Positions 27,794 to 61,100 of a stretch of DNA of 64,000 bases are shown piece by piece. Below the pieces are notes generated by a model that saw nothing but the letters and a program-made list of their open reading frames with translations, searched no databases and was not told the origin of the DNA. A program made the position numbers and the translations under genes. Position 1 is the first letter of the stretch, and the number at the start of each line of letters is the position of its first letter. The stretch covers positions 480,001 through 544,000 of the forward strand of contig CAXXGI010000001.1 in the NCBI GenBank assembly GCA_963674695.2, given 5' to 3'. The DNA comes from a bacterium. GTDB taxonomy: Bacteria > UBA10199 > 2-02-FULL-44-16 > JAAZCA01.

Positions 27794-28012
27794 TCAAAAA
27801 AACAACATCACCAATATAACGTAGATAACAAACAATACAGGCACTGTCATGAGCCATCTCTTCTCGCTTCTATTTAAACGAAACACATCTCCCGTTGACA
27901 GACATACCTTCTTCGTCCTCTTTCTATAGTTCAATATGGATCTCCGCATACACTCATACATCAAGCCAAAAATCATAAATGACACCAATACTTCGACATA
28001 ATACATGTTCAC
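27794..28012 (-). CDS. Small two-helix membrane protein, candidate Rhs immunity protein
   Basis: GTGA overlap with the Rhs stop; two hydrophobic segments; low GC like the Rhs C-terminus. Confidence 0.6.
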   Translation of the reverse strand: MNMYYVEVLVSFMIFGLMYECMRRSILNYRKRTKKVCLSTGDVFRLNRSEKRWLMTVPVLFVIYVILVMLFF

Positions 28013-40650: not shown

Positions 40651-40940
40651 AAAAGTGGTCGACTTGCTCCCACTTCGAAGGCCATTCGTAATGGGAGCAA
40701 AGTGACCACTACGAAGGCCGTTTGTAGTGGTAGTAAAACGACCACTACGAAGGCCGTTTGTGGTGGTCGGGTTTGACCAGTTTTGTGCGGGGGGTGTTGG
40801 GAAGTGGTAAAAAGCGACCACCACGAAGGCCGTTCGTGGTGGTCGGTGTTGACCAGTTTTTGGCATGGGTGGCGGAAAGTGGTAAAAAGCGACCACCACG
40901 AACGGCCTTCGTGGTGGTCGGTGTTGACCGGTTTTTGGCG
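40651..40940. repeat. Right array of the same hairpin repeats
   Basis: Five cores near 40664, 40704, 40739, 40815 and 40890; array starts just after the ATPase stop. Confidence 0.85.
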
Positions 40941-42866: not shown

Positions 42867-45854
42867 CTAGTTAAGATCGCCCATGTCGACGGGGATGGGC
42901 GGAGGAATGCCCGGACTCATCTGCTGAGAAAAATCGATCACCTGTTTCACATAGGCATAGCTCAGCCCGCCGGGATACGAACGGCCTGGAAGCGTAAAGA
43001 CATCGGCATCATATTCAAGATCAATCGTTCGCAAGCTGCGACCATCTCGCAGGAAGGAAAAGGTATCACCCGAATAGGCAATACGCCATTCATCCGGGCA
43101 CATCACGGCGCGGTCATCCTTTCCATCGCCATCAAAATCTGCCGCCATCGGATGACACTTACCCCCGCCATAGACGTTGTCCGGAGGAAGGAACGTAAAC
43201 GAAGCAAAATAATCGCTGACAAACGCCACGCTCCACTTTTCAGATGTATTATCCTTGATCGCCGGAGCGCTCCAAGAGCTGTCAGGATCAAAACGACCAG
43301 GAACCGGAATCGCTTCATTCCCGCCATAGATTGGGTTCGCATACTCCATGATATTAAATGTTCCATTTGGATATGTCAGCCCTACCATTGTCCCTTCATC
43401 GACCAAACCATCCGGATATTTATAACTGAAATACGGAGAATGTTCTGTCATATTCGAATAGTCATGGCCAAAGGCGAGATATGCCCAACCGGGGGCCTGC
43501 GCCAACTCTTCATCGGACAGATATTCGAATTCAAATTCATATCCCGAAAAATTGCTTTCGTCCGTACCACCATAATCGACGCGCCATATGCCATCGGAGC
43601 AGGCAATGGCGATGTCCATAAAACCATCTTCATCGTAATCACCCAACGCTGGGCGGCTGTAGTTGGAGCAGTTCGGACCTGTACGTGTGGTGCAGGAGAG
43701 CGGGTCGAGTTTGAGGTCATCGACCCATTGGGCGCTGTAGTCGAGTTCCCAGTCCCAGCCGTGCCACTCGTTACGGCGCAGGATATCGACATCGGTGAAG
43801 GCGATATAAAAGGTGCCGTGTTCCTTGTCGTAGACCACGAAGTCGCTGCGACCGTCGGCGTTCACATCTTCCACATAGGGCCAGACCCAGCGTCCGTCGA
43901 TGGGATCGTGTGCGATCTCGACATCCCAACTGCCAAACCCATCAGCCGCCTCGCCGATGGACGAGAGGTCGAGCTTCCAGGTGCCGTTGGTCCACTGCAC
44001 GAGGTCAGCACGCCCATCGCCGTCGAAGTCGTAGTGATCGGCAAAGCCGGTCTGCGGCGTGAAGAGCTCTTCGTCCGGACAGATCGGATCGGAGTTCACA
44101 AGATCACCCTCTTTGCAGATGATGCCGATGCCCGCCTGGCGCAGGGCGATCATGCGCTCTTCGGTGAGGATCTCGCCGGAATCGAGCTCGGGATATTCGG
44201 CGCGCATCTGGGCGAGAAAGGTATCGACCGCTGTCATCGCCACATCGATGCGCGGCTGCGTGCCGATGTTGCAGCCCGCATCGGTCTGATTGACCCCCGA
44301 GCCAACGATGATCTCGCGCATCTTGGGCGGCATGAGGTAGCGCTTGTAACCGAGGTCATTGCGCGCATAGCTCTGCACGAGCACCGCCGCACCGCCGACG
44401 ATGGCCGCCGCCGACGAGGTGCCGCCGAAGTTATCGATGAAGTAGCTGTTGATCTCGTCGTTGGGCGGGATCGGTCCCTGCGTGCCGTTCCAGGCATAGA
44501 GACCGTATTCATACCCCGTGGTCACAACGCCCTGCCCCCAGGAGAAACTATTCACGCGGGAACCGCAGTTGGAAAACGAGATCTTCGATTCATTCGCGCC
44601 TTCGCTCGCGCCGACGAGAATGGAACCTGAGTCTTCCACCGACAGATCTTTTGCAAAGGCCCACTCTTCACCGCTGTAGAGTTCGGGGTTATCAAAATCC
44701 ATTGAACCATTGGCAGCGGCGGAAATGACCGTCACACCGTAGGCCGTGGCCTGCTCAATCGCCGCAAAGTCCTCAGGCCACAGCTCGCGCGGCATACATC
44801 CATACTGATCGCTCGCATACACACCGGAACAACCGTCAGCAAACTTCCCCGGGAGCTGCATCTCGATCACCCAGATGGATCCAGGTTCGAGGTCGTCGTC
44901 TAAAATGGTATTTGGATCATCTATGCCGTCCGTCGACGAATTGATCAGACCATATGATCCACCCGACTCATGCAACAAAAACGCATCCGGCGCAAAGCCC
45001 GTGACGCCATGACCGTTATTGAGCGCCACCATCACGCCCGCCACGGCTGTGCCGTGTGCAATGGCCGATTCACAGTTGGGAATCTGTGGTTCAAAGCCCG
45101 GCGCGCAGTCCGGATAGAGGAAAAAGTTTCCGCCCTCGCTATGCCGAGTAGCGATGAGACCCAGGTCCTCGTGGTCGAAGTTCATGCCGTGTTCATTGTC
45201 GACGACGGTCACACCTTCGCCCGTCGCCCCCGCGTTCCAGGCGGCGTGGGCGTTCAACCCCCCGTGTGTCGATTCGGGAAAGAGATATCCCTGCAGGCCG
45301 TCGAGCGCAGGGGTTGCGGCCAGCCCCGAAGGCGAGCCCTGCATGCCGGGATAGACCTTGGTCACGCCCTCCATGCCGCGCAGCTCGTTCAAGAGCGCGA
45401 TGGCGTCCTCGGCGCTGTTCGTCTCGATGTGATAGATGGAATTCCAATCGGTGAGCTGCTTGCCCGAGAGCCGCTCGAGCTTGGCGCGCCGCGCGTCGAC
45501 GATATCGGCGTCGGCTTCAACCGTGCGCACGATGCGCGATTCCGGAAAACGCTTGATCGCGTTTTCAACCGAGGCGATGAGCGCCGCTTTGTTCGTGGAG
45601 GTGGTGAGGGCTTTGGATTCGTTCATGCGCACCGCGAGCGCGTCGTCGAAGTGGACGACCAGATGACCCGCGTAGGCATCGGACTGAATGAGCGCCGCCA
45701 TCGTCGTGTGCTCGCCCGCACCCACGTCCGGTTCCGGAGCACTTTCTGGTGAAGGATTACTTCCGCCACCGCAGGATGCGGATGCGATCATCATCGCCAT
45801 CGCACATGCCAGCAGCGCGGACCGTGTTCCCGTCACATCGGTCAGATGTGTCAT
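42867..45854 (-). CDS. S8 serine protease lipoprotein with FG-GAP/VCBS-like repeats, paralog 2
   Basis: Same triad and repeats as 7953..10931 with long near-identical stretches. Confidence 0.85.
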   Translation of the reverse strand: MTHLTDVTGTRSALLACAMAMMIASASCGGGSNPSPESAPEPDVGAGEHTTMAALIQSDAYAGHLVVHFDDALAVRMNESKALTTSTNKAALIASVENAIKRFPESRIVRTVEADADIVDARRAKLERLSGKQLTDWNSIYHIETNSAEDAIALLNELRGMEGVTKVYPGMQGSPSGLAATPALDGLQGYLFPESTHGGLNAHAAWNAGATGEGVTVVDNEHGMNFDHEDLGLIATRHSEGGNFFLYPDCAPGFEPQIPNCESAIAHGTAVAGVMVALNNGHGVTGFAPDAFLLHESGGSYGLINSSTDGIDDPNTILDDDLEPGSIWVIEMQLPGKFADGCSGVYASDQYGCMPRELWPEDFAAIEQATAYGVTVISAAANGSMDFDNPELYSGEEWAFAKDLSVEDSGSILVGASEGANESKISFSNCGSRVNSFSWGQGVVTTGYEYGLYAWNGTQGPIPPNDEINSYFIDNFGGTSSAAAIVGGAAVLVQSYARNDLGYKRYLMPPKMREIIVGSGVNQTDAGCNIGTQPRIDVAMTAVDTFLAQMRAEYPELDSGEILTEERMIALRQAGIGIICKEGDLVNSDPICPDEELFTPQTGFADHYDFDGDGRADLVQWTNGTWKLDLSSIGEAADGFGSWDVEIAHDPIDGRWVWPYVEDVNADGRSDFVVYDKEHGTFYIAFTDVDILRRNEWHGWDWELDYSAQWVDDLKLDPLSCTTRTGPNCSNYSRPALGDYDEDGFMDIAIACSDGIWRVDYGGTDESNFSGYEFEFEYLSDEELAQAPGWAYLAFGHDYSNMTEHSPYFSYKYPDGLVDEGTMVGLTYPNGTFNIMEYANPIYGGNEAIPVPGRFDPDSSWSAPAIKDNTSEKWSVAFVSDYFASFTFLPPDNVYGGGKCHPMAADFDGDGKDDRAVMCPDEWRIAYSGDTFSFLRDGRSLRTIDLEYDADVFTLPGRSYPGGLSYAYVKQVIDFSQQMSPGIPPPIPVDMGDLN

Positions 45855-46079
45855 GGGACCCCCCTTCAAAAAATCCGCTTGCTTTTTGCACTATTAGCAC
45901 CCATGTCGCACCGCGGCAAGAGTTTTCCACAGGCTGGGCACCTCCCCTTTTCGCGAGTTTTTTCAAAAAGTTGCGTAGTTTTTGGGGGGAAGTGGGGGTT
46001 GACGGGCGTTATCAGGCAACACAACGTCTTATTCATTGAAATATAAGGAGATATTACAGGCATCGCCGATAACAGCTGT

Positions 46080-47840
46080 CTACGAAAAGAGGCGGTTGAC
46101 GCGCTTTTCATCGATCGGCTTGGGGATGACTGAATCGGCACCGGCGGCTTTGGCGCGGCGTTGGATCTCTTCATCGTCATAGAAGCCCGTGCAGAGGTGA
46201 ACGCTGCGCACGCCCTTGGCCTTGAGATAGGCCACGAGGTCGACGCCGTTGAGGGTGAAGCCTTCGTAGTTGTAGTCAACGATCGCGGTATCGACCCGAG
46301 CATAATCGATATCGCTGCGCGCCTGGACCTCTTCCGCACTTCCGGCGGAACAAACGATGGAACCTCCCTGGGCATCGACGATCCGTTCCCAGTTGCGACG
46401 AACGTCGGCATCGTCATCGGCGATGAGGACGTTCATATGACTGACGTTGATGCTCACCACATCGGCGGTCGTTCTCACGCGATCATCGGCCACCCGATCC
46501 GTGACGACGCAATTCGGAATCCGAATCGTGAACGTCGTGCCCTTGCCCACCTCACTCTCGACAGTGATCGTGCCACCATGCGCCTCGACCACCTGTTTGC
46601 AGTACGCAAGACCAAGTCCGGTGCCGTGTTGTTTGTCGGTGGTGAAGAACTGGTCGAAGATCTTGAGCAGGTTTTCAGGTGAAATTCCACAGCCGGTGTC
46701 AGTGACGGTTATCGACAGCCCCATACTCTCTCGAGTGACATTTACACGCACATCACCACTCGTCCCCCTGATAGCCTTGACCGCATTGCCCATAATATTC
46801 ACCAGGACACGTCCGATTCGGTAGGCATCAAGGCTGGCCGCTTCCAGGCCATCAGCAATGTGACACACAATCCTGACCCCACGATTGCTCACCTTTCGCC
46901 GCACCTCTTCAACCGCCTCATTCAGAACTGTGCGCACATTGACATTGAGTCGCTCGATACGTGAGGCCTTTGAATAATCGACTAATTCATCGGCCATCAG
47001 CTTGAGCTTTTCCACACTTCGACCTGCGGCGGAAGACAAAGCCTGCATGTCCTCATCATCACCTTCATATTTCCTGCAATCAATAAAGGTCTTCAGCACA
47101 GACAGTGGCGAGCGGATATCGTGGGCAATGTGGGAGGACATTTTGCCCATTTCAAAGAAACGTCTATTATCATACGCCTTCTTCGTCAGCATTCGTTCTC
47201 GGTCAATAATTTCAAGCACAGCGATCATTACTTCCTGAATTCTTTTTGACCGAATTTTTCTCGAAAGTGTAATCACTCGCTGTTGCGCAATTCCATCTTC
47301 AGAACATTGCGACAACAACCCAATCATTCGAGACAGATTATATGTATATATGAATAGAGGAAGTTGACCCGCAGCTATAAGCACCGCAACAAGAACCATA
47401 ACAACAACTAGAAGCAAGCTATATTGCCGTAGCGTAGCAGCAATAAAACCCCAACGATCTATCAACACACTAATATTTGCATACTCATGTCCATATGCGC
47501 GAATGACATAGTTATGCTTACGAATAGAACGCTTAGCAGAAGTTTCAGCTGGATATATATTTCCGGCTATCACAGGGGCTAACATTGAATCACCCACACG
47601 CAATTCAACAGCATCGATTCGTGAAGATTTGATTATTTTCAGAAGAGTAACAAGCCTTTCACTATCACTCGCCTTTATGGCATCGACAAACTCATCATTC
47701 AACGTCTCAACCTTAACGCTGGTAGCATCTAATACGCTCTTCTTCTCCAAATGCACAATCACCCCACTTGCTATGACGGTTACCATGAGAGCAAGGAGAG
47801 CTACAGTAACACTGCATACTATGATCTGCCTTCTATTCAT
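46080..47840 (-). CDS. Hybrid sensor histidine kinase (2 TM, HisKA, HATPase, receiver)
   Basis: IAHDIRSPL, NIMGNAVKA, DTGCGI, FFTT..GTGLGL; receiver VLIADDD..IVDY..PKP. Confidence 0.92.
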   Translation of the reverse strand: MNRRQIIVCSVTVALLALMVTVIASGVIVHLEKKSVLDATSVKVETLNDEFVDAIKASDSERLVTLLKIIKSSRIDAVELRVGDSMLAPVIAGNIYPAETSAKRSIRKHNYVIRAYGHEYANISVLIDRWGFIAATLRQYSLLLVVVMVLVAVLIAAGQLPLFIYTYNLSRMIGLLSQCSEDGIAQQRVITLSRKIRSKRIQEVMIAVLEIIDRERMLTKKAYDNRRFFEMGKMSSHIAHDIRSPLSVLKTFIDCRKYEGDDEDMQALSSAAGRSVEKLKLMADELVDYSKASRIERLNVNVRTVLNEAVEEVRRKVSNRGVRIVCHIADGLEAASLDAYRIGRVLVNIMGNAVKAIRGTSGDVRVNVTRESMGLSITVTDTGCGISPENLLKIFDQFFTTDKQHGTGLGLAYCKQVVEAHGGTITVESEVGKGTTFTIRIPNCVVTDRVADDRVRTTADVVSINVSHMNVLIADDDADVRRNWERIVDAQGGSIVCSAGSAEEVQARSDIDYARVDTAIVDYNYEGFTLNGVDLVAYLKAKGVRSVHLCTGFYDDEEIQRRAKAAGADSVIPKPIDEKRVNRLFS

Positions 47841-49228
47841 TGGATATTCTTTATATCAATGTACCCCAGCATGAGATCATCTGAGCTGATATTCTTTATT
47901 CTTTTCGAAATCAGGATTTCACTTTCAACTTGAAATAATGGAATCAGCTGATAATTATCAAGTAACGCTTTATTGGCGCTCCTAAATAATGTCTCTTTTT
48001 TATCTACATCCATTTCTCGCATTGCGGCTGCAATAATAGCTTCATAACGATCATTTTCGATTGTTGTGCATGTAGCATTGTTATCTCTCATGAACATGTT
48101 GAATATATACATCGGGTCAGATAGAACGGCATCAACGCCAAGCAAGACGGAGCCGTAGTTTTTTTCTGGAGAACGGAGATGCTTCTCAAATTCATACATA
48201 TCGACATGTTTAACTGTTACACTCAATCCGGTCGTCCGAGAAAATTTATCGAAATATTGTTTCAACTCGCGAATTTTGTCCGCATAAAGCGTTATCAAGG
48301 TAATCTCTGTTTTTCCTTCATATTTCCTTGCGGGGCACACTTGTTCTATTCGCCCACCAATTGCCCCTGATATTCCAACTGGGAGAACTCCCCCGACATC
48401 ACGATACACTTCCTTTCTTGGAAAAAAGAGTGTGCGCAATTTATCCACATCAGCGCAATTATAAAATACCTTTCTCGCCTCAATGTCTGGCGTATTAAGA
48501 AGAATGATATAGTTTTTCATGATCAAGACATTATATGCGTTCATTTTGTCACTCAGATTTACATCTTTATTATCCTGAGCGACAAATGTTATATCATCAT
48601 AATCATGAAGGGGCTTACCTAATCCAGGACTCCACTTTTCAAAAATAACCGTTCTATACCGAACATTGTCATTGGATTTCAAAACAATACTTTGCTCATC
48701 GAAACTTTCCACATGATATGGAGAGATACCAATCACCACTCTCGAATTAAATGTTTCTGGATCAGCAATGGCAGCTTCATATGACGATAGCTCACCAAGC
48801 AATGAGTGGTAAGGGTTCTGATATTCTATGATGACACATCTTCCACTTATTGCCTTTTTGTGAATTCCATTCGTAAGAACTCTTCTTTCGAACGCACGCT
48901 GTAGATTTGCTATAACATCAGATGCAGTAACCTCCTTTTCGTTGGAGAATTTCACTCCTTCCCTTACGCAAAAACTAAACCGTTTGAAGTCGTTGCTAAC
49001 ACTCCATTCCTTCAGGATATTTGATCCATATGTGTATTTGGTTTTTTTGTAGAATAAGGGTTCATGCAATTGTTTTAATATGTACAATTTATAATTTGCA
49101 TTCGCGTCAAGGGGATCAAGTACGGCTGGATAAAATGTCATAGCGGCTCTAAATACATTGCCACCCGTATTGCACGATGCAATCACGGCGATCATTGCGA
49201 TGACGATGGCTCTTTTTATTATTTCCAC
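47837..49228 (-). CDS. Family-5 (peptide/nickel-type) solute-binding lipoprotein, no permease nearby
   Basis: Lipobox-like IASC; LDP, WSVSND..F..REGVKFSN..VTASDV, C-terminal LIPLF; stop overlaps the kinase start. Confidence 0.75.
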   Translation of the reverse strand: MEIIKRAIVIAMIAVIASCNTGGNVFRAAMTFYPAVLDPLDANANYKLYILKQLHEPLFYKKTKYTYGSNILKEWSVSNDFKRFSFCVREGVKFSNEKEVTASDVIANLQRAFERRVLTNGIHKKAISGRCVIIEYQNPYHSLLGELSSYEAAIADPETFNSRVVIGISPYHVESFDEQSIVLKSNDNVRYRTVIFEKWSPGLGKPLHDYDDITFVAQDNKDVNLSDKMNAYNVLIMKNYIILLNTPDIEARKVFYNCADVDKLRTLFFPRKEVYRDVGGVLPVGISGAIGGRIEQVCPARKYEGKTEITLITLYADKIRELKQYFDKFSRTTGLSVTVKHVDMYEFEKHLRSPEKNYGSVLLGVDAVLSDPMYIFNMFMRDNNATCTTIENDRYEAIIAAAMREMDVDKKETLFRSANKALLDNYQLIPLFQVESEILISKRIKNISSDDLMLGYIDIKNIQ

Positions 49229-49995
49229 TTAGACATCCTTACAAAAAATGGTTGAAAGCCGTTGTTCATAAAATAACGCAATGACAACTTATGAACAGCA
49301 TTGATACCGACAAAGAATGGTGGCTTATGTTCTGCCATTACCCTGGCAACTGACAAGGCAGCGCTATGATGTACAGCATTTTGCACGCGATCTGACAGCC
49401 ATATATAGGTTATAAGATTGTATTTTTCGAGATACTTATATGCCTGCATTTTCATAACACCGACATAACCCACAAGCTCATCGGCGTACATGACGAAACA
49501 ATGATCGATATCCTTTGCTGTTGGCTCAAAGATATCCATCACCGCTTTGTTGATTTCTTCGTATCCCTTTATCATGTAGCGCCTATCATTACCTAGCTTA
49601 CGGAGAAATTCTCTGCCCAGCTCACTTGAATATTCCGTGATGCATTTGACAGCAACAGACTCTCCATTGGTGTCCGCAACCTCAATGCCTGAATGCTTGA
49701 GACACATGATCTTGTTCACAGTGTGATCATCGTCTCGAAATAATGCCGAAACATTTGGAATTGGTTTGTTAAACTTGAGATTCACATCAATCCCATCACG
49801 ACGTTGCATAGATCTGAAGTCATCAACAATGCCACCGTTCAGCACGAAGTCTTGATCAAGGCAATACGCATCAATTGATGCGCCTGTATTTGTCCATACT
49901 AGTGGAGCATCAAAATGAATTGAACTTTCATTGATGCTGTTCATAAACGAATGAACAAATGATGACCCAATATTACCCACATGATAGTTCATCAT
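49219..49995 (-). CDS. Hypothetical protein with GNAT-like C-terminal fold
   Basis: LVGYVGV..ITYIWLS..SLRYFMNNGF pattern; RBS aaggag. Confidence 0.55.
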   Translation of the reverse strand: MMNYHVGNIGSSFVHSFMNSINESSIHFDAPLVWTNTGASIDAYCLDQDFVLNGGIVDDFRSMQRRDGIDVNLKFNKPIPNVSALFRDDDHTVNKIMCLKHSGIEVADTNGESVAVKCITEYSSELGREFLRKLGNDRRYMIKGYEEINKAVMDIFEPTAKDIDHCFVMYADELVGYVGVMKMQAYKYLEKYNLITYIWLSDRVQNAVHHSAALSVARVMAEHKPPFFVGINAVHKLSLRYFMNNGFQPFFVRMSKWK

Positions 49996-50016
49996 ACTAA
50001 AAACTCCTTCACCTTA

Positions 50017-50050
50017 GGAGCCTCCTTTCGCGTGATTGAAAGGAGGCTCC
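50017..50050 (-). other. Strong stem-loop after the small peptide gene
   Basis: ggagcctcctttc-(8 nt)-gaaaggaggctcc, 13-bp perfect stem; no U-tract on the minus strand. Confidence 0.65.
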
Positions 50051-50081
50051 CTTGCGTTTTGACGACAACAGCGGTCGCCAT

Positions 50082-50165
50082 TCAGCAATACCCATAATTA
50101 CAAACTATTTTTGGTTTTACTCGTTTTACCTTAGTTTCTTTTGCCTTCTTTTCCTCTTTTTTCAT
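50082..50165 (-). CDS. Putative RiPP precursor peptide, 27 aa: MKKEEKKAKETKVKRVKPKIVCNYGYC (absent from the ORF track)
   Basis: Hand-translated ATG 50165 to TGA 50082; GGGAGG RBS; 20 nt after the B12 radical SAM stop; charged leader and Cys/Tyr tail. Confidence 0.8.
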   Translation of the reverse strand: MKKEEKKAKETKVKRVKPKIVCNYGYC

Positions 50166-50185
50166 GACGCCTCCCTTGTTGGTGG

Positions 50186-51871
50186 TTAACTGTATATTTC
50201 TATGTAATCATTTTTTTTCGTAATGGTAATCGTTCTCTCTTTAGGATATTTTAGCACATCCCTCATCTCGATAAATCTATCTACATCGTAAGCACATTTC
50301 ATTGCTATAGAATCATCTATGCAAGATTGAGATAGTTTGCCAATTGCCATTTCATATCCAAAGACATCGTCTATAATGCTGCTTTTTGTCGTATAAAGGG
50401 TAAGTGTATCTGTCATTATTTTCCACATATCAGTGCACTTAAATTCATGTAGCATATCCTCATTACCGTCATGCATAGTCCTCACAATATCCAATACTTT
50501 TACACCCCCCACCGACGTAATAGATGAGATGGTAAATGGATAATATTCCACGAGATGAGCAAGGACATTCCTTACGGTCCTCAACGGAACACCATTTACA
50601 GATCTCCGGCAAATCGCATTGAATGAATACAGCCTTCTTTGGTCCCGCATTGCAACTCCTGCGGAATATTTTGTACTATCATCCACACGCATATTATAGG
50701 TCGATAGCATCTCGTCAAATGCCGCCGTATTGGGATATGGATCAAGCATTGACACTTGAATATTCCCCACCCCCTCGTGTTTCATATCAATTATACGGGC
50801 TATATCAGCTTCAATGTCATCATCCGATTGACTCGGTAGCCCAATTATAAAATTCCCTGCTACTTCGATGTCATTTTCCACACAATCTTTAATCAACTCG
50901 CGCACCTTCTCATAATCATACACCTTACCAACACCCCTCTGCACCTCCGATGACATCGTTTCAAAACCAATAAACACTTTAGTGCAGCCCGCCTGCGAAA
51001 GAATCGAGGGCAGGCCCTCCTCATAGTCATCAACTCTCATATAGCATTCCCACTGAATGGCCAGACTCGATTCTCGAATTTGATTACATAGATCAAACAC
51101 CCTTTTCCTATCAAAAAGAAACTGGTCGTGAGTAAAGCGATATCGTCTAATGCCTCTTCCGTAGAGCGTACGAATATCGCTCATGACTTTATCAATGGAG
51201 CAGTATCTACTTTTATTTCGCCAAAATGATGAAGATGCGCAGAAGGAGCATTTCCCAGAACACCCACGACCCGACTCAACCCAGCACACCTCATTAAACA
51301 ATGGCGACTGTATATACCGTTCAATATCAACATATTTATAATCAATGGGAGGCAATTCAGCCAAATCCAGCAACCGCTCATCTGTACTACTAACGACAAA
51401 TCCAGCCCTCCTATATGTCAATGAATTCACCCCGGCAAAAAAAAGCTTGTTCTTCATTAGATTGTAAACAACATCACACAACACCTTCTCCCCTTCTCCC
51501 CTTACAACGGCATCAACAAATGGCATATTATTAATTATCTCTAAGTGGTTTGCAGTTGCATGTATCCCACCGAGCATAACGATTGAATTAGCTGATATTT
51601 CTTTCGCCCGCTGTGCAATACTAAAAGCCTTTTGTATGTTCCTATAATGGACCGTTATACCAACCACATCATAGATTTCGGAGCCCAATCGTTTACAAAG
51701 CACATCCTCATTGTCCTCAACAGCCAAGTCCACTACCTGGATATTCACTTCAGGCATTCTTCTCGCAAGATAACTTGCAAGCGTAAGAAGACTTAAAGGA
51801 AAATCGATATTCTTCTCAACCATCTCGTGGTCGACAATGCCTGGATTTATGAGTAGAATATTCATCGACAT
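50186..51871 (-). CDS. Cobalamin-dependent radical SAM protein
   Basis: B12-binding N-terminus (PLSLLTLASYL, DVVGIT, LGGIHAT, VVRGEGE); SGRGCSGKCSFC; IGFET; FIIGLP. Confidence 0.9.
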   Translation of the reverse strand: MSMNILLINPGIVDHEMVEKNIDFPLSLLTLASYLARRMPEVNIQVVDLAVEDNEDVLCKRLGSEIYDVVGITVHYRNIQKAFSIAQRAKEISANSIVMLGGIHATANHLEIINNMPFVDAVVRGEGEKVLCDVVYNLMKNKLFFAGVNSLTYRRAGFVVSSTDERLLDLAELPPIDYKYVDIERYIQSPLFNEVCWVESGRGCSGKCSFCASSSFWRNKSRYCSIDKVMSDIRTLYGRGIRRYRFTHDQFLFDRKRVFDLCNQIRESSLAIQWECYMRVDDYEEGLPSILSQAGCTKVFIGFETMSSEVQRGVGKVYDYEKVRELIKDCVENDIEVAGNFIIGLPSQSDDDIEADIARIIDMKHEGVGNIQVSMLDPYPNTAAFDEMLSTYNMRVDDSTKYSAGVAMRDQRRLYSFNAICRRSVNGVPLRTVRNVLAHLVEYYPFTISSITSVGGVKVLDIVRTMHDGNEDMLHEFKCTDMWKIMTDTLTLYTTKSSIIDDVFGYEMAIGKLSQSCIDDSIAMKCAYDVDRFIEMRDVLKYPKERTITITKKNDYIEIYS

Positions 51872-51910
51872 TTATAGCCCATCCTGATTCTTGGCCTTAT
51901 GCAACCATCC

Positions 51911-53071
51911 CTACCCTTGGTCCTCCACCCTTCGGGCGCGGCTCCACAGCTGCGGAGTATAAAATATACCTGAAAGTATGATGGTGGCACCTACGAAGAG
52001 CCAGATGAAGAGTGGCTTCAGTGTCGCATAGGTGTTGGCCTTGGCGATGAAGACGCTGGTGAGCAGACCGAACTGCATGAAGAGCTGTCTCAGAATGAAG
52101 GCGTTGGTGCGCTGCGTTTCGCCCTTCTCTTCTTGAAAGATGCTCGTCTGGGCAAGGTTGATCAGACCGATCGATGCGCCGATGAAGAAATTGAGCACGA
52201 AGAGCCAGCCAAACTGCGGGATCAGTAGGAATACCGCATGCGTCGCAAAACAGAGAATGCATGCCATGAGAAAGATCACGGCGGATCCCCGTTTGATCCA
52301 ATCGACGCGCACGATCCCCATCGCGATAAACATCGCGCCCAAACCAACACTGTAAAAGAGGGATATCTGATAGGAACTGGCCTGGAATTGATCCATGAGG
52401 TAGGGCACTTCGATCACATTGAAGATGCCAGCAACGATGAAGACGAGGAAGGTTCCAACGAGCGTCTTAAGGGAGGGAAGGCTTGGCCACTCAAACCGCG
52501 TACGCGCTTCAAGCATTCCCTTTGCGCACGACTGTGCCTCGGCTTTCCTCAGCCCAAGCACACCCAGGAGCAAGAACAAAGAGAACCCGCCATCGATGAG
52601 GAGAATTCCGCGAAAACCCAGCGCGGTGGCCACAACAGGCCCAACAATAAATCCCGTCATGATCGCCGCCATGCCACCGATCTGCACGCGCTTATTGAGC
52701 GTGATCTTATTGTCCCCCGCAATGATGGGAACGAGCGTCAAAATCCGCGCGAAGAGCCATGTGCCGGCGAAATTGCGAACCAGAAAACAGATCTTCCACA
52801 CCATCGTCTCTGGATTGATGAAGGCGATACTCACCGACATGACAAGCCCCAGGACAACCAACGCAACATTGAGTGAACGCGCCTTGAATACCTTCATCTG
52901 CGCACACCCGAGCGCAATGAGCGCTCCCAGCGCCTGAATGAGCACGATCATACTCGTGCCCGCGATGCCTCCGAAATCGAGGGCCGCGGAAACGGTGGCG
53001 CCAAGCGTGATAAACCCAGTGGCGAGACGAAGAAGAAAGAAGCTGACGATGAGGACCCAAGCTGCTGACAC
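51911..53071 (-). CDS. MFS transporter (probable exporter)
   Basis: About 12 hydrophobic segments in two halves, GPVVA/IDG motif; GTG start with aaggag RBS. Confidence 0.75.
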   Translation of the reverse strand: MSAAWVLIVSFFLLRLATGFITLGATVSAALDFGGIAGTSMIVLIQALGALIALGCAQMKVFKARSLNVALVVLGLVMSVSIAFINPETMVWKICFLVRNFAGTWLFARILTLVPIIAGDNKITLNKRVQIGGMAAIMTGFIVGPVVATALGFRGILLIDGGFSLFLLLGVLGLRKAEAQSCAKGMLEARTRFEWPSLPSLKTLVGTFLVFIVAGIFNVIEVPYLMDQFQASSYQISLFYSVGLGAMFIAMGIVRVDWIKRGSAVIFLMACILCFATHAVFLLIPQFGWLFVLNFFIGASIGLINLAQTSIFQEEKGETQRTNAFILRQLFMQFGLLTSVFIAKANTYATLKPLFIWLFVGATIILSGIFYTPQLWSRARRVEDQG

Positions 53072-53357: not shown

Positions 53358-53603
53358 TCACATGCCAGCAATCCGTTCCACTACCTGATCACAAAACCGA
53401 CCGGTGTTGCAGACACAGCGGGGCAGGTTCCCACCGATGTGCTCCTTCACATCGACGAAGCGCGATGCAGTGATCGACTTCCATCCCACGTCAAAGGGAC
53501 TGCGCCACAAGACCTGCTTCGGCAAAGAGATCCACTCCGCCTTTCGGATGGACTGGGCAACGGTCGTTACCGATGCCTCCGTCTTTCTGTTGTTGCCGCT
53601 CAT
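53358..53603 (-). CDS. Putative RiPP precursor B (81 aa; KAEWISLP leader, CVCNTGRFC)
   Basis: Follows the S41 stop; shares NR, KxEWIxxP and CxCN[ST]G motifs with 55254..55523. Confidence 0.65.
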   Translation of the reverse strand: MSGNNRKTEASVTTVAQSIRKAEWISLPKQVLWRSPFDVGWKSITASRFVDVKEHIGGNLPRCVCNTGRFCDQVVERIAGM

Positions 53604-55253: not shown

Positions 55254-55523
55254 CTAACACCACTCATGCTTCGTGCATGGCACCTTGTTGGTACAGGAAC
55301 AATGCGCGCTCACACAGAAACAGTCGCTGTCGCCACTGTTGCACGTGCATTTTTTCTTACAGGATTTTGCGATGGCTTTTCCACACAAATCGTCGTTATC
55401 GCCCATCCGGAAGATGGTTTCATCATAGTGACTATCCTTCATTGGCATCGCAATCCATTCCACCTTCTGCTGCTTCTTCTCCTCCACCCGCTGACCACCA
55501 TAGATTCTGTTCACACTCACCAT
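55254..55523 (-). CDS. Putative Cys-rich RiPP precursor A (89 aa, 10 Cys, three CxC motifs)
   Basis: AGGAGG RBS before MVSVNR; Cys-free first half, Cys-rich second half; directly after the radical SAM/SPASM gene. Confidence 0.8.
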   Translation of the reverse strand: MVSVNRIYGGQRVEEKKQQKVEWIAMPMKDSHYDETIFRMGDNDDLCGKAIAKSCKKKCTCNSGDSDCFCVSAHCSCTNKVPCTKHEWC

Positions 55524-55579: not shown

Positions 55580-56950
55580 TCATGATGCCGCACAGCACTC
55601 CGCGGATTTCGCATGCCGCTTCAGAGCATGCGTCAATTTCAACTCTTCGATGAGGTTGTACTTCACCCGAAGGCACGACTCCGCATTACGATCATCCTTC
55701 ACCTTGTCCGGGCACCATCCCATACAGAGCGGAAGAACCTTGCATGAACGGCACTTTCGAAATTGTAGAGCATCAAAATTGATCCATTTGAGATATATAT
55801 CGTTGATCCGCACCCCTTCGTGAATGGTGCCTATCTGCTCGCTCTCCACCCCGATCGTTTCACTACACTTATAGAGATCCCCTCGGGCATCGATGACGAG
55901 GCTATTGGGAAAGGTCGCCCCGCAACTGGAACAGGTTGGCCCATGAGCCGGCTCGATGCGAAAACCCATATCGTGCGTCATCATCTTGAGCTGTGATTCC
56001 AATCGAGCGAATTCCTTCTGCGAATAGATCGCCCGACACCCCTGTCCTGCATCTGCACAGCATTCAGCCCCATTGTGAACCGGGCTATAGTAGAGCCGAA
56101 TGTACTTCGCGATGCCGCGACCATGCAGGATCTCGGCCAAATCTCGCACAAAACGAATATTGTCCTTATCGACATTACACCGCACCGACACATTCACAAT
56201 ACGGCAGACGTCTTCGATGTTTTTCAGGATTCGATTGAACGTACCCTTTCCACTGACATAAGGGCGACGTCGATCATGAATCTTCGGAGGCCCATCAAGT
56301 GTTACCTGCACGGCGTTCACCTTCAATCGCGCAAGGTCTCGAGCCACGCTTTTGGTCAGGAGGGTCCCATTAGTAATCATGCAAGCGGAATAATGTGCGC
56401 CGTGCCGGCGACAGAGGTTCATAATACGCGATGACAGCGCTTTGATCATGGGAACACAGATGAGCGGCTCCCCGCCAAACCACTCGATTGCAACATCCTT
56501 GCATCCATTTTTGAGCCGCGCGCGAATGACATCGACAATTTTGTCCTGAACTGCCTTTGACATCACGACATTCGCCTTGTTGTGCTCAAAACAATATGAA
56601 CAGTTCATATTGCATTTGTTCGTGGGAATAATGACCAGCGACAATGATCGATCCGACATGCTCCGCACCTGCTGCGCTTGATATCGAATATACTCGATTT
56701 CATCGATGTCAGATGGAATCACAAAACCGCCATCCTGGAGAGCCTGACGAACATCGGCATCCATTCCGGCAGGAGGTCCATTGCGCGAGGCACTCTGCAA
56801 CAACCATCGATAATCAGAGCAGCGCGTATCCGTGAGGCGCAGAAAAGCACCCGTTCTCGTGTTATACAGGAGCAGATCGTTGCCTTCCTTGTAGCCAACA
56901 TTGAACCTCGAGTTCTTATACGCCTGTTGCGCATCACATCGTTTCCGCAT
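55580..56950 (-). CDS. Radical SAM/SPASM peptide maturase
   Basis: SRFN..LLYNTRTG RRE-like N-terminus; PTNKCNMNCSYCFE; WFGGEPL; SPASM CGA..GDLYKC..CRSCKVLPLCMGWCP..C; start MRKRC with ggagg RBS. Confidence 0.92.
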   Translation of the reverse strand: MRKRCDAQQAYKNSRFNVGYKEGNDLLLYNTRTGAFLRLTDTRCSDYRWLLQSASRNGPPAGMDADVRQALQDGGFVIPSDIDEIEYIRYQAQQVRSMSDRSLSLVIIPTNKCNMNCSYCFEHNKANVVMSKAVQDKIVDVIRARLKNGCKDVAIEWFGGEPLICVPMIKALSSRIMNLCRRHGAHYSACMITNGTLLTKSVARDLARLKVNAVQVTLDGPPKIHDRRRPYVSGKGTFNRILKNIEDVCRIVNVSVRCNVDKDNIRFVRDLAEILHGRGIAKYIRLYYSPVHNGAECCADAGQGCRAIYSQKEFARLESQLKMMTHDMGFRIEPAHGPTCSSCGATFPNSLVIDARGDLYKCSETIGVESEQIGTIHEGVRINDIYLKWINFDALQFRKCRSCKVLPLCMGWCPDKVKDDRNAESCLRVKYNLIEELKLTHALKRHAKSAECCAAS

Positions 56951-57301
56951 ATCGCCTCCCTGATGATTCTTGTGATTGACACCACATCGGGACTGCACAA
57001 AACGGGCCAACGCCCGAGCATGCGAAATCATTTCAGTTTTTTTGCTGACGGAACGGCGTGTTCGGATTTGATGCACTCAGATTGCAACAAATGTTCAGAA
57101 TGCTGAACATGTGAATTCCGCGATGGAGTGGGGATGACAATCGATCAACCGAAAACAACACACTTCTTTTCACTCCACCACATAGAACGTATCGACGCGG
57201 CGAGGATTAGAAGTACTCCAGAGAAACCGTCACACCATCACACGTGAATGATGAGCGGGTATTGGGGACGAAGGTCGACGGTTCGGTTCAGCGTGCGCAG
57301 T

Positions 57302-57335
57302 GAAAAGGAGCGTTCCTTGCGATAACGCGCTCCTT
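57302..57335 (-). terminator. Possible terminator after the coiled-coil gene
   Basis: aaggagcg...cgctcctt stem with a short T run on the minus strand. Confidence 0.4.
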
Positions 57336-57958
57336 CACTGAAACTGCGCCTTGAGGCTCACGATGTCGCCATGATTTTGGGTGAGCATCGCTTCTACGCG
57401 CGCAAGCCGAGCATCATGACCTTCGATGGTATGACCATTGCTTTCAATCGCTTGGCGGTTACCTTCGATGGCTTGGCGATTACCTTCAATGGCTTGGCGA
57501 TTGACCTCGATCGCCTTGCGGTTTTCTTCAATGGCTTGACGATTGACCTCGATCGCCTTGCGGTTTTCTTCGATGGCTTGGCGATTGACCTCGATCGCCT
57601 TGCGGTTTTCTTCGATGGCTTGGCGATTGACCTCGATCGCCTTGCGGTTTTCTTCGATGGCTTGGCGATTGACCTCGATCGCCTTGCGGTTTTCTTCGAT
57701 GGCCTTGCGGTTCTTGATAATCTCTTCGCGGTTGGACTTGATCGCCTGCCGATTGAGCATGATCTCGCGGAGCAGATCCTCGCGCAGGCCAGCGATATCA
57801 CCCTTGACCTCCTGACGCAGGGCATTCATCCCCTCCACCAGCAGATCCATCTTCTCTTGAAAGGCCTCGAAGATCACATTCACGTACGACTCCTCCGTTC
57901 CCACCTCAATCGTCCTGCTCCGCTTTTTCGCGTTCATCCTTCTCTCCTCCATAGCCAT
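57335..57958 (-). CDS. Coiled-coil protein with tandem heptad repeats (AIEENRK/AIEVNRQ)
   Basis: About 15 consecutive IxxNRxA-type heptads. Confidence 0.75.
   Translation of the reverse strand: MAMEERRMNAKKRSRTIEVGTEESYVNVIFEAFQEKMDLLVEGMNALRQEVKGDIAGLREDLLREIMLNRQAIKSNREEIIKNRKAIEENRKAIEVNRQAIEENRKAIEVNRQAIEENRKAIEVNRQAIEENRKAIEVNRQAIEENRKAIEVNRQAIEGNRQAIEGNRQAIESNGHTIEGHDARLARVEAMLTQNHGDIVSLKAQFQ
57437..57722. repeat. Intragenic tandem repeat, 21-bp unit organised as a 42-bp dimer
   Basis: gcggttttcttcgatggcttggcgattgacctcgatcgcctt repeated about four times near-perfectly, with degenerate flanks. Confidence 0.9.
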
Positions 57959-58121: not shown

Positions 58122-61100
58122 CTAGTCCACCACATGTATCGTATCGACCGGATCGCCGAGGCGGTCGAGGGCGATCATGGAGACGGCAAGCGATTCGATC
58201 TGGTCGTCGTCGGCGCGCAGACAGCCGAAGGTGGGATGGCGGAAATCGCGGCGGCCGCCGTGGAGGAAGAGCGCGCGGCGCTGGGCGATGGCATCATCGG
58301 CCTCTGTCCCGAGCTCGCCGGCGAAGAGGCGAACGCGGCCGAAGCTCACGGCATATTCCTCCACGCCCGCACCCTCGCGACGGCTCGTCCACGCCGCGCC
58401 GCCGGCGCGGCTCTCGCCCGCGATCACCTCGCGCAGGCCATAGCGATCGTAGACCTGGGCGCGATACTGCGCGTTGATGAAGTCGGGGACGCCGATGGAA
58501 TAGGTGCCGTTCGGAAAGGGACCGTTGGCGCCGATCGCGAGCGGGTCGGCCTTGGGTCGCGTCACGTTGTTGGCCACATCGTATTCACCGAGGGGACCGT
58601 AGTCTTCGCTCATGAGCCACATCCGTTCGACCGAGCGCTGAAAGAGGATCCAGGCCAGGCCCAGGATATCGACAAAGCGCGAAGGATCGGCGTTGGCATA
58701 TCCATAGCGATTCGCATCGGGCGCACGCGAATCGAACTGCGGCCGCGCAAAGAGGCGACCGAAGGGAAGGACGCCGTAGTCGGCGGAGATGTGCATCGGC
58801 CGATTGGGGAAAGTCGTGCGCGCCGCGCCCCCCTGTCCGGCGTGCAGGGAGAGCGCGGGCACGATGGCGAGCGAGACCCGCGCCCGATGCGGCGTCTTGA
58901 TGCCGAGCGGATCCGGCGTGAAAAAGCGCGCATGCTGCGGGCTGTAGACGCGCTCGCGCATATCGACGAGACCCGTGCGACGATCGAGGTCGTGACCGGC
59001 GAATGACGCGGTCCCTTCGCAATCGGGCAGCGGTTCGCCATACGGGGCATACCGACAGCGCGATGCGATGGCGCCGTCCTGCACGGTGGCGATGCGCGAA
59101 CCGATGCGATCGCGCAGGAGCAGGCGCGTCTCATCGCCGTCGAGCGTTGCGAATGGAAACGAGGCGCCCTCGGCGAAGAGATGCGCGGCACTCGTCTCGG
59201 CACCCTCGTCGGCGATGCGCAACCAACCGTTCCAGAGGTGACGACGCTCTCCCTCCGACGTCACCGAGCGCACGCGGCGGTCGAAGGCATCGTAGAAGTG
59301 GTGCGCGATCTCCCCCTCGCCTTCGAAGACATGCGTCAGACGATTGAAGGCATCGTAGACATACCGGCGCGACCCGTCGGCGATGAGGTTTCCGCTTGCA
59401 TCGGAGCGCTGCACATCGGCATTCGAAGCAGAAACCCCTTCGATCAGGTTGTCGGCGGCGTCATAGGCATAGCGCCAGGTCTGTCGAGCACCCGGAGATT
59501 CGTCGGTAACTCCGACAAGCCGTCCCACGCCATCGCGCTCGAAGCGACGCACGTGATCGTCGATGCGCTCCTGCGCGAGGAGACCGTCGGCGCCGAAGGC
59601 AAGCTCCCTCGTCAGGAGTGGCTTTGCCCCTGCAACGGTCGCGCGCTGCACATGACCGATCGCGTCGCGCTCGAAACGCTCTTCAACGCCATGGGAAAAT
59701 TGGACGCGTGCAATTGCACCGCGCGAATCGGAGGTGAACGACGCCACGCGATCGGCGCCAACCATCACGCTCACCAATCGTCCCGCCTGATCGCGCAGAT
59801 ACGAGACGGTCGGCCCCGTCGGAGAGTGAAGCGCCACCATACGCCCTGCGTCGTCGAAGGTACGCGTGATCCACGCATCATTTTGCATCTCGGCCACAGG
59901 GCGTGAGAGGGAATCGTAGCGGATGTGCACGCGCGCCATTGCGATGGGATCGGCGATGGCGCCGGCATCCACCGCGCGCGTCAGGCGCCCGAGACCGTCG
60001 TAGGTGAATTGCTGCATTCCCGAGACCGCCCGACTCTCCGCGCGATAGATCTCGCGGCGCATGAGATGTCCCCCCTCGTCGAAGCGTTGGCGCAGGCGCG
60101 AGCCGTCGCGCATCTGCGCACCCACGACGTGATCCTCTTCGTCGTAGGCCAGGCGCGTGCGAGCGCCATCCGGAAGGATCGTCTCGATCAGACGCCCGAG
60201 GGCATCGTAGCCAAACTGCGTCGCATCTCCCATGGCATCGATGAACTGCACGAGGCGATCGTCGGCGCCCCAACGCTGGCGCATCGTCGTTTTGATCTCG
60301 CCCCCCGCACGCGTCACCGTGACACGCCGGCCCAGGTCATCCATCGCAAAACGCAGCGCCCTGTCGCCGGGGGCAATCGCCTCGCGCAAAAAGCCCTGAT
60401 CGTCGTACGCATAGCGCCAGGCGAGGTCTTCCCCCACCGTCACTGTCCGCGGAAACCCCGCATCGGAGTAGGCGATGCGCATCCGATCGAGGCACTTGCC
60501 CTCGGCGTCGATGCAGCTCTCGGTGACGCGCCCGCTCGCATCGCGCTGGAAGACTCGCCGCACACCGGCGGCATCGATCCGGGCGACGAGCAAACCGCGC
60601 GCGTCATACTCGAAGCGTTCCACCGCGCCGGTCGGATCGATCGATGCGATGAGCCTGCCCGCACCATCGTAGCGATAGTGTTCATCGACCCAACGACCGC
60701 GGGCGGGATCCTCGCGCCAGAGCAGGCGTGAGCGCCGCACGAGATTCCCATTCTTATCGTAGACGGCGCGCGCGTGTGCGAGGAGCACACCCTTGGCATC
60801 GACGTCCCGTCGTTCGACGATGCGACCGAGCTTGTCGCGGGCGTATTCCGTGCGGTTCCCCCGAGCATCGATGACAGCGATCACCTCGCCGAAACCGTTG
60901 CGCTGCATCCGCGTGCTGTTCCCGTTTCCGTCGATGAGGGCGATGACCGCACCATCGACATCGCGCTCCACGCGGCGTTCGGAGCGCTCGAGCGAATCGG
61001 CCCCGCGCACGACGCCGCGCACGCGTCCGAGGGCATCGCGCTGCCACACGGTGACGCTTCCACCCGGGGCGATGGCGCGCACCATCCGTCCGGCGCCGTC

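Follow-up and report, generated by a model that had tools for sequence, protein, structure and literature searches.

A 27-codon open reading frame beside a B12-binding radical SAM gene: a candidate RiPP precursor in a bacterium of an uncultured phylum

We analyzed a stretch of 64,000 nucleotides from a bacterial genome (contig CAXXGI010000001.1, positions 480,001 to 544,000; hereafter the window). A 190-nt gap separates the gene of a B12-binding radical SAM enzyme from the next gene, and this gap contains a frame of 27 codons with the C-terminal tail CNYGYC. Does this frame encode the peptide on which the enzyme acts? We lean slightly, at a probability of roughly 0.55, towards the answer that the frame is a RiPP precursor and that the enzyme modifies its Tyr/Cys tail. 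The features on which the argument turns are collected in Table 1.

The 27-codon frame and the hairpin behind it

The ATG at 50165 opens a frame of 27 codons that closes with TGA at 50084-50082, and its product is MKKEEKKAKETKVKRVKPKIVCNYGYC. There is no in-frame start upstream of this ATG after the preceding stop. The N-terminal 21 residues are Lys/Glu-rich, and the remaining six form the tail. A sequence-only reading of the window had placed an ORF ending CNYGYC at 50165-50082, with a GGGAGG ribosome-binding site, a Lys/Glu leader, and a Cys-flanked tail with two Tyr residues. The frame and its translation bear out the ORF, the leader, and the tail, and the GGGAGG is present at 50175-50170, 4 nt from the ATG. 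The stop codon of the B12 radical SAM gene is separated from the ATG by 20 nt, and the following gene starts at 49995. Among the 11 cluster genes listed, this GGGAGG and the AAAGGAGG of an 89-aa Cys-rich ORF are the strongest Shine-Dalgarno (SD) sites. The locus therefore has what is generically looked for in a RiPP precursor: a short co-directional gene with its own SD, adjoining the gene of a peptide-modifying enzyme.

The frame was compared with chance expectation in two ways. When the 190-nt gap was shuffled by dinucleotides, an ATG ORF of at least 27 aa with a strong SD (4-13 nt upstream of the ATG) arose in 24 of 5000 shuffles, and one of that length regardless of the SD arose in 597 of 5000. 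In the whole genome (3.03 Mb, 58.5% G+C), a strong-SD ATG ORF of 24-70 aa occurs in 5 of the 309 same-strand gaps of 100-300 nt, the gap of the 27-aa ORF itself counted. The 27-aa ORF with its SD is rarer than expected by chance. Codon usage does not discriminate, as the ORF resembles in-frame windows of neighboring genes and 35% of composition-matched stop-free shuffles score equally. Contig pieces from three sequencing runs (two samples of one study) carry no variant letters in the ORF among the pieces listed, and the displayed rows of the table of differences (37 more lay beyond the display) likewise contain none within it.

A second example of the peptide was sought at several distances. 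No paralogue of the 27-mer was found in its own genome, where a KNYGYC match lies inside a 713-aa ORF with no stop after it. In 92 other genomes of the phylum, the pattern C-x-YGYC-stop had six matches versus five for the reversed control, and all six lacked both an in-frame Met and a Lys/Glu-rich leader. At 94 distant loci with B12 radical SAM genes, the small ORFs with an SD next to the radical SAM ORFs included nothing resembling the 27-mer, and the string CNYGYC was not found in the literature searched.

Behind the stop codon, the 96-nt spacer folds with -37.1 kcal/mol (z = -4.14), and none of 200 shuffles was equally stable. The hairpin at 50050-50017 alone accounts for -27.2 kcal/mol. 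The sequence-only reading had described a 13-bp hairpin before the next ribosome-binding site; the hairpin and its position hold, and its stem proved to be 14 bp. Directly 3' of it on the gene strand is the GAAGGAG site of the gene for a 258-aa protein, with no T-run. The hairpin arms hold CCUCC, which resembles an anti-SD, and AAGGAGG, which resembles an SD. In the predicted fold, the hairpin pairs with neither the real SD nor the start of the next gene, and the spacer showed no alternative terminator/antiterminator pairing when folded. No Rfam family matched the spacer. We consider the hairpin a candidate intra-operon attenuator or stabilizer of an mRNA 3' end. Hairpins in such a role are established for lantibiotic operons.

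Table 1. Features of the region around the 27-codon frame, in window coordinates
Feature	Position	Strand	Remarks
Radical SAM/SPASM peptide maturase	55580..57076	-	NCBIfam TIGR04463, 291.7 bits, below the cut-off of 525
89-aa Cys-rich precursor (predicted)	55254..55523	-	Uncalled; SD AAAGGAGG; EWI leader motif, repeated C-x-C core, ends EWC
81-aa ORF	53358..53603	-	In the 548-nt gap between the S41 and MFS genes; A-E-W-I leader, short C-V-C-N-x-G…C core
MFS transporter	51911..53071	-	GC3 0.70, host-like
B12-binding radical SAM enzyme, 561 aa	50186..51871	-	Pfam B12-binding 8.4e-13, Radical_SAM 2.6e-17; motif CSGKCSFC
Shine-Dalgarno GGGAGG of the 27-aa ORF	50170..50175	-	4 nt (CGTC) upstream of the ATG
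Candidate RiPP precursor ORF, 27 aa + TGA	50082..50165	-	Translation MKKEEKKAKETKVKRVKPKIVCNYGYC; GC3 0.25
G+C-rich hairpin	50017..50050	-	14 bp, 8-nt loop; 31 nt 3' of the ORF stop; without a directly following T-run
Orphan 258-aa protein	49219..49995	-	SD GAAGGAG; no homologue; no Pfam or NCBIfam family; GC3 0.42
SBP_5-family solute-binding protein	47837..49228	-	Lipoprotein-type N-terminus (…VIASC); Pfam SBP_bac_5 1.4e-15; GC3 0.37
Hybrid histidine kinase, codons 1-216	47193..47840	-	Two membrane helices, extracytoplasmic part of ~100 aa, linker; GC3 about 0.34-0.35
Hybrid histidine kinase, HisKA + HATPase + receiver	46080..47192	-	GC3 0.64, in line with the genome at large
S8 peptidase with FG-GAP repeats	42867..45869	-	Lipoprotein-type N-terminus; kept with the SPASM cluster in G014

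The B12 enzyme and the SPASM cluster around it

The 561-aa protein contains a Pfam B12-binding domain (residues 25-134, 48.7 bits, cut-off 32.1) and a Radical_SAM domain (residues 199-357, 63.9 bits, cut-off 29.5), and its CSGKCSFC motif (CxxxCxxC, residues 204-211) is invariant in 50 aligned sequences. By these sequence features it is a class B (B12-binding) radical SAM enzyme. The AF2 model built with 50 sequences has high confidence up to residue 390 and is poor beyond, with a pLDDT under 50 at nearly every position from 396 to 546. A Foldseek search with this model found TsrM (E 3.5e-27), followed by AprD4, MgmA, CysS, TokK, and OxsB. All NCBIfam matches stayed below their cut-offs: the best was ApyD (NF050148, 147.9 bits, cut-off 750), restricted to residues 65-404, followed by BchE (132.4 bits, cut-off 481), HpnJ (121.8 bits, cut-off 578), and the PoyC-type RiPP C-methyltransferases of TIGR03975 (87.1 bits, cut-off 281.85).

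Relatives of the whole enzyme are scarce. Among 5.8 billion proteins, the sole full-length relative is P0003 (35% identity, 99% coverage, E 6e-110), which comes from a contig of 6966 bp; the next match has an E-value of 4e-44, and most matches span about the first 70% of the query. The best of 60 relatives is 32% identical over residues 49-388. Metagenomes gave 420 relatives, 80 of which were kept; all are generic, mostly cover residues 1-390, and never extend past about residue 460. A viral scan returned eight loci, all of generic B12 enzymes, and two scans of genome contig collections yielded no homologue with gene context. P0003 has an extra C-terminal tail of 11 residues, rich in Cys, His, and Glu, that is absent from the enzyme of the window.

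Residues 391-561 form an orphan C-terminal domain of about 170 residues, with one detectable relative among billions of proteins. When this domain alone was searched against 1.84 billion representatives, only itself and P0123 matched. P0123 is a eukaryote-type protein with repeated ADGRF3-like domains, and we judged the match spurious, as its score is a sum of weak scores from the single repeats. Of 93 phylum genomes, two contained the domain: its own, and one with a marginal match (E 0.008) that has an internal TGA. It matched no Pfam family, PqqD included, at E-values up to 10, and the ESM Atlas gave no usable match. A RiPP recognition element (PqqD-like) was likewise not detected in residues 391-561 or in the 258-aa protein at E-values up to 10.

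The enzyme gene belongs to a long co-directional array, as every gene from 57076 to 40945 is on the minus strand. The order is SPASM maturase, 89-aa ORF, S41 peptidase, 81-aa ORF, MFS transporter, B12 enzyme, and 27-aa ORF, and then the 258-aa gene, SBP_5 gene, hybrid kinase gene, S8 peptidase gene with FG-GAP repeats, and the gene of a beta-helix protein. The 89-aa ORF directly follows the SPASM gene, and its product is the predicted precursor on which the SPASM maturase acts. In its long reading from a GTG, the S41 peptidase gene overlaps this ORF, but the S41 gene probably begins further downstream. Another precursor of the SPASM system, perhaps one in decay, may be encoded by the 81-aa ORF, whose SD is weak. 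Three features of the surroundings are recorded here for completeness. Immediately upstream of the SPASM gene, 57335-57958 (minus strand) encodes a 207-aa protein that consists largely of tandem NRKAIE(V/E)NRQAIEE heptad-like repeats and looks like a coiled coil. Giant YD/Rhs-repeat proteins of 3396 and 1950 aa, encoded at 28009-38199 and 58122-63974 (both minus strand), flank the region. A long hairpin at 40797-40938 (plus strand) weakly matches plant microRNA precursor models (39 bits, cut-off 117); we dismissed the match as surely accidental, the hairpin being a palindrome immediately behind the beta-helix gene and possibly a terminator.

A homologous SPASM cluster is present in a genome of the same order (G014) on the 13-kb contig C38. 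Its SPASM homologue is 40% identical in the genome search and 38.5% by BLASTP, its S8/FG-GAP homologue is 33% identical (E 1e-161), and an SBP_5-like protein shows weak similarity (E 6e-4). Seven tandem Cys-rich precursor ORFs of 71-128 aa (L110, 3265-6830) flank the SPASM maturase, and a beta-helix protein, a methyltransferase, and a sigma-54-type regulator are also encoded there. The contig looks like a multi-precursor RiPP cluster, and no analysis here linked it to a system already described. The E-W-[IV] leader and the C-x-C core of the seven ORFs align with the two Cys-rich ORFs of the window (89 and 81 aa). Judging from these homologues and aligned motifs, the SPASM system has been conserved together with its precursors, in an arrangement where the maturase gene comes first and the precursor behind it has Cys as its last residue. 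Contig C38 carries no B12 radical SAM gene.

The 27-mer has neither the E-W-[IV] leader nor the C-x-C…C-x-C core, whereas the 89-aa and 81-aa ORFs have both; it is outside the SPASM precursor family. The tail …KPDCYNYGKKAE of one G014 precursor had been considered as kin of KPKIVCNYGYC. We discarded this likeness as evidence because C-x0-1-NYG occurs about 10 times in 1.66 million residues (overlapping loci counted once) and the comparison was post hoc.

A low-GC3 block that ends inside a kinase gene

Base composition sets part of the cluster apart. The B12 enzyme gene has a GC3 of 0.40, and the genes of the low-GC3 island range overall from 0.25 to 0.42. The MFS, S41, SPASM, S8, and beta-helix genes, the 89-aa ORF, and the rest of the kinase gene range from 0.57 to 0.70. 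The 27-aa ORF and the enzyme gene share their low GC3 against these flanks and therefore appear to have arrived together. The island is embedded in the conserved SPASM-maturase cluster. Its sequence is identical in contig pieces from the three runs of the one study, wherever long pieces are listed.

The boundary on the downstream side falls within the kinase gene. A single GC3 change point was found at codon 216, about 20 codons before the H-box, where GC3 rises from 0.34 to 0.64 (2ΔlnL = 51). The kinase gene (46080-47840) is compositionally chimeric, which suggests a recombination joint at the boundary of the sensor and catalytic parts, and codons 1-216 were assigned to the island on account of their low GC3. 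The catalytic and receiver part has a paralogue with 60% identity in the same genome, and its other relatives are 42-51% identical. For the sensor part, the 92 other genomes offered one weak relative (G004, 20% identity, E 3e-10), located at a contig start.

The two genes between the hairpin and the kinase gene are poorly connected to known families. For the 258-aa protein, Pfam at a relaxed threshold gave only DUF3791 (E 0.1), a search of PDB sequences matched only engineered repeat proteins, and the AF2 single-sequence model had a pLDDT of 33. The ESM Atlas pointed to a GNAT-like protein (0.93), which we keep as a weak lead because only 142 features are shared. The SBP_5 protein is nearly an orphan with one homologue (E 6e-4), and it scored below the cut-offs of all NCBIfam nickel and oligopeptide binders. 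No permease genes are nearby, and the stop of the SBP_5 gene overlaps the start of the kinase gene. A complex prediction for the SBP_5 protein and the extracytoplasmic part of the kinase scored 0.00, with an uncertain fold of the partner.

Given the low GC3, the orphan status, and the change point in the kinase gene, the enzyme gene, the 27-aa ORF, the 258-aa gene, the SBP_5 gene, and the part of the kinase gene that encodes the sensor appear to have been imported as a single block of about 4.75 kb (about 47150-51900) and joined to a resident kinase core.

Readings of the frame and their significance

The sequence-only reading had proposed a RiPP precursor. That proposal gains from the SD, the hairpin, the adjoining B12 enzyme gene, the parallel order of the SPASM genes, and the common composition, but no second example turned up at the 94 distant loci or in the 92 other genomes of the phylum. 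Within the same cluster, a radical SAM maturase is followed by a Cys-rich precursor ending in Cys, and the best, though far sub-threshold, NCBIfam match of the B12 enzyme is a RiPP enzyme, ApyD. Against the precursor reading stand the missing second example and the orphan status of the 258-aa gene, the SBP gene, and the C-terminal domain of the enzyme. The failure to detect a recognition element in that domain or in the 258-aa protein, the uninformative codon usage, and the lack of a protease or exporter gene within the island also count against it.

If the frame is a precursor, it would be translated and co-transcribed with the B12 radical SAM gene. The Lys/Glu-rich first 21 residues would serve as a leader held by the enzyme, perhaps via its orphan C-terminal domain, and the enzyme would act on the C-terminal CNYGYC. 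By analogy with two characterized enzymes that act on Tyr-x-Tyr, the chemistry may be C-methylation of Tyr or a Tyr-Tyr C-C cross-link, and the two Cys residues of the tail would be free for a disulfide or metal binding. The cyclic, possibly methylated hexapeptide of the sequence-only reading is a purely putative product. The hairpin may stop or stabilize part of the transcripts and so raise the precursor message above that of the downstream genes. The island has no protease or exporter gene of its own; leader removal and export might fall to the neighboring S8 or S41 peptidases and the MFS transporter. The S8 peptidase is a possible leader protease, and the MFS transporter is possibly an exporter used in common with the SPASM system.

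The frame might instead be a chance opening in an A-rich spacer, with the enzyme acting on the EWI-type precursors or on a non-peptide substrate and the hairpin serving as an intra-operon terminator or stabilizer. Twenty-seven codons are short, and with the SD ignored the shuffled gap reached that length 597 times in 5000. Codon usage does not support coding, and no similar ORF was found at the 94 distant loci or in the 92 other phylum genomes. Two bona fide precursors are available 3-5 kb upstream in the same co-directional cluster, and relatives of the catalytic part of the enzyme are mostly not beside peptides. A chance frame fits poorly with the strong SD at the right distance, which arose in just 24 of the 5000 shuffles and in 5 of the 309 genomic gaps. 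The EWI precursors also fit poorly as alternative substrates: the enzyme gene came with the ORF in the foreign island, whereas the EWI precursors are host-like (GC3 0.64), and the homologous SPASM cluster on the G014 contig is without a B12 radical SAM gene. We hold the chance reading to be doubtful, yet serious enough to keep in mind.

The ORF could also be translated without being a substrate, either as a regulatory leader peptide that tunes the 258-aa, SBP, and kinase genes together with the hairpin, or as a small basic protein. The arrangement of a strong SD and ORF, a very stable hairpin within 31 nt, and then the SD of the next gene would suit such regulation, as would the CCUCC and AAGGAGG in the hairpin arms. 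But the hairpin leaves the real SD and start of the next gene unpaired, the fold offers no alternative terminator/antiterminator pairing, and the ORF has no run of a regulatory amino acid. For a tail with Cys-x4-Cys and two Tyr residues, encoded directly after a radical SAM gene of the peptide type, a role as substrate is the better explanation, and we regard a regulatory or small basic peptide as quite improbable. The reading of the frame as a precursor of the B12 enzyme is the one that we carry into the comparisons below.

Three characterized groups of RiPP enzymes offer parallels for the chemistry. [quoted passage not shown] ApyD is thus a class B radical SAM enzyme that acts on a Tyr of a C-terminal G-Y-x-Y tail, and its family is the best NCBIfam match here, although this match covers the shared catalytic part only. 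The differences are that no recognition element is detectable here, that the cluster has no P450, MNIO, or methyltransferase genes, and that the tail has flanking Cys residues and no C-terminal Asp. The accessible part of a study on the biphenomycin-like pbs system (PMC12257519) describes PbsB as a B12 radical SAM enzyme that links the aromatic rings of FRF, or of a YTY variant, through a biaryl C-C bond. It joins aromatic residues i and i+2, and the tail here has Tyr-Gly-Tyr. Unlike pbs, the cluster has no MNIO, arginase, or hydroxylase genes, and the FHAFRF motif is absent. The RiPP C-methyltransferases of proteusin and bottromycin pathways (TIGR03975) are alike in being B12 radical SAM enzymes that methylate unactivated peptide carbons. 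Precursors of the proteusin and bottromycin type are long, unlike this 27-mer.

The gene order invites a wider reading, in which the island is a self-contained and co-transferred cassette of peptide signal and receptor, analogous to the agr hypervariable region. The orphan B12 enzyme, perhaps with the 258-aa protein, would turn the 27-mer into a small Tyr/Cys-modified peptide. The exported peptide would be bound by the SBP_5 lipoprotein, which would dock on the sensor domain of the hybrid kinase, and recombination would have spliced the cassette onto the resident kinase core exactly at the junction of the sensor and catalytic parts. This reading draws on composition and gene order in one genome, and we think it unlikely. 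In the accessible part of a staphylococcal study (PMC12312760), the agr hypervariable region takes in the whole gene of the peptide and portions of two others, those of the processing enzyme and the sensor kinase. Likewise, the island here extends from the gene of the modifying enzyme through that of the peptide into the sensor-encoding part of the kinase gene, where it ends just before the H-box. Families of the agr type (AgrB peptidase, AgrD precursor, AgrC kinase) were not found in the cluster with Pfam and NCBIfam, and only the layout of a variable segment is alike. At the present locus, the kinase is of the hybrid HisKA type and has a receiver, and an SBP_5 lipoprotein gene lies in between. 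The evidence in agr is polymorphism, whereas here it is composition in one genome, with no allelic series. The cassette would follow the same logic as agr, but with radical SAM chemistry and a binding-protein receptor, and in an uncultured phylum.

A binding protein that signals through a kinase has precedents. As the accessible part of PMC8050422 describes, kinase-stimulating binding proteins are typically encoded beside signaling genes, and LuxP/LuxQ is a pair with a hybrid kinase. The present locus resembles LuxP-LuxQ in its gene order, as a binding-protein gene without transporter genes directly precedes and overlaps a hybrid sensor kinase gene. LuxP is a Peripla_BP_4 protein that binds AI-2, whereas the protein here belongs to SBP_bac_5; LuxP and XylFII, the signaling binders named in that part of the source (PMC8050422), are of another family than SBP_bac_5. 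No system that combines a RiPP, a radical SAM enzyme, a histidine kinase, a solute-binding protein, and quorum sensing was described in the literature searched, as judged from titles and the beginnings of abstracts.

If the pairing is real, it would provide an enzyme-substrate pair for a B12 radical SAM family that has no characterized and hardly any detectable relatives, and the minimal core of six residues makes it easily tested. The locus also illustrates how gene callers miss such precursors, with three uncalled or doubtful small ORFs in one cluster. The break inside the kinase gene at the junction of the sensor and catalytic parts suggests that the capacities to make and to sense the peptide were transferred together. 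If true, this would be a new kind of peptide signaling, in which a ligand made by a radical SAM enzyme is combined with a binding-protein receptor and a hybrid kinase.
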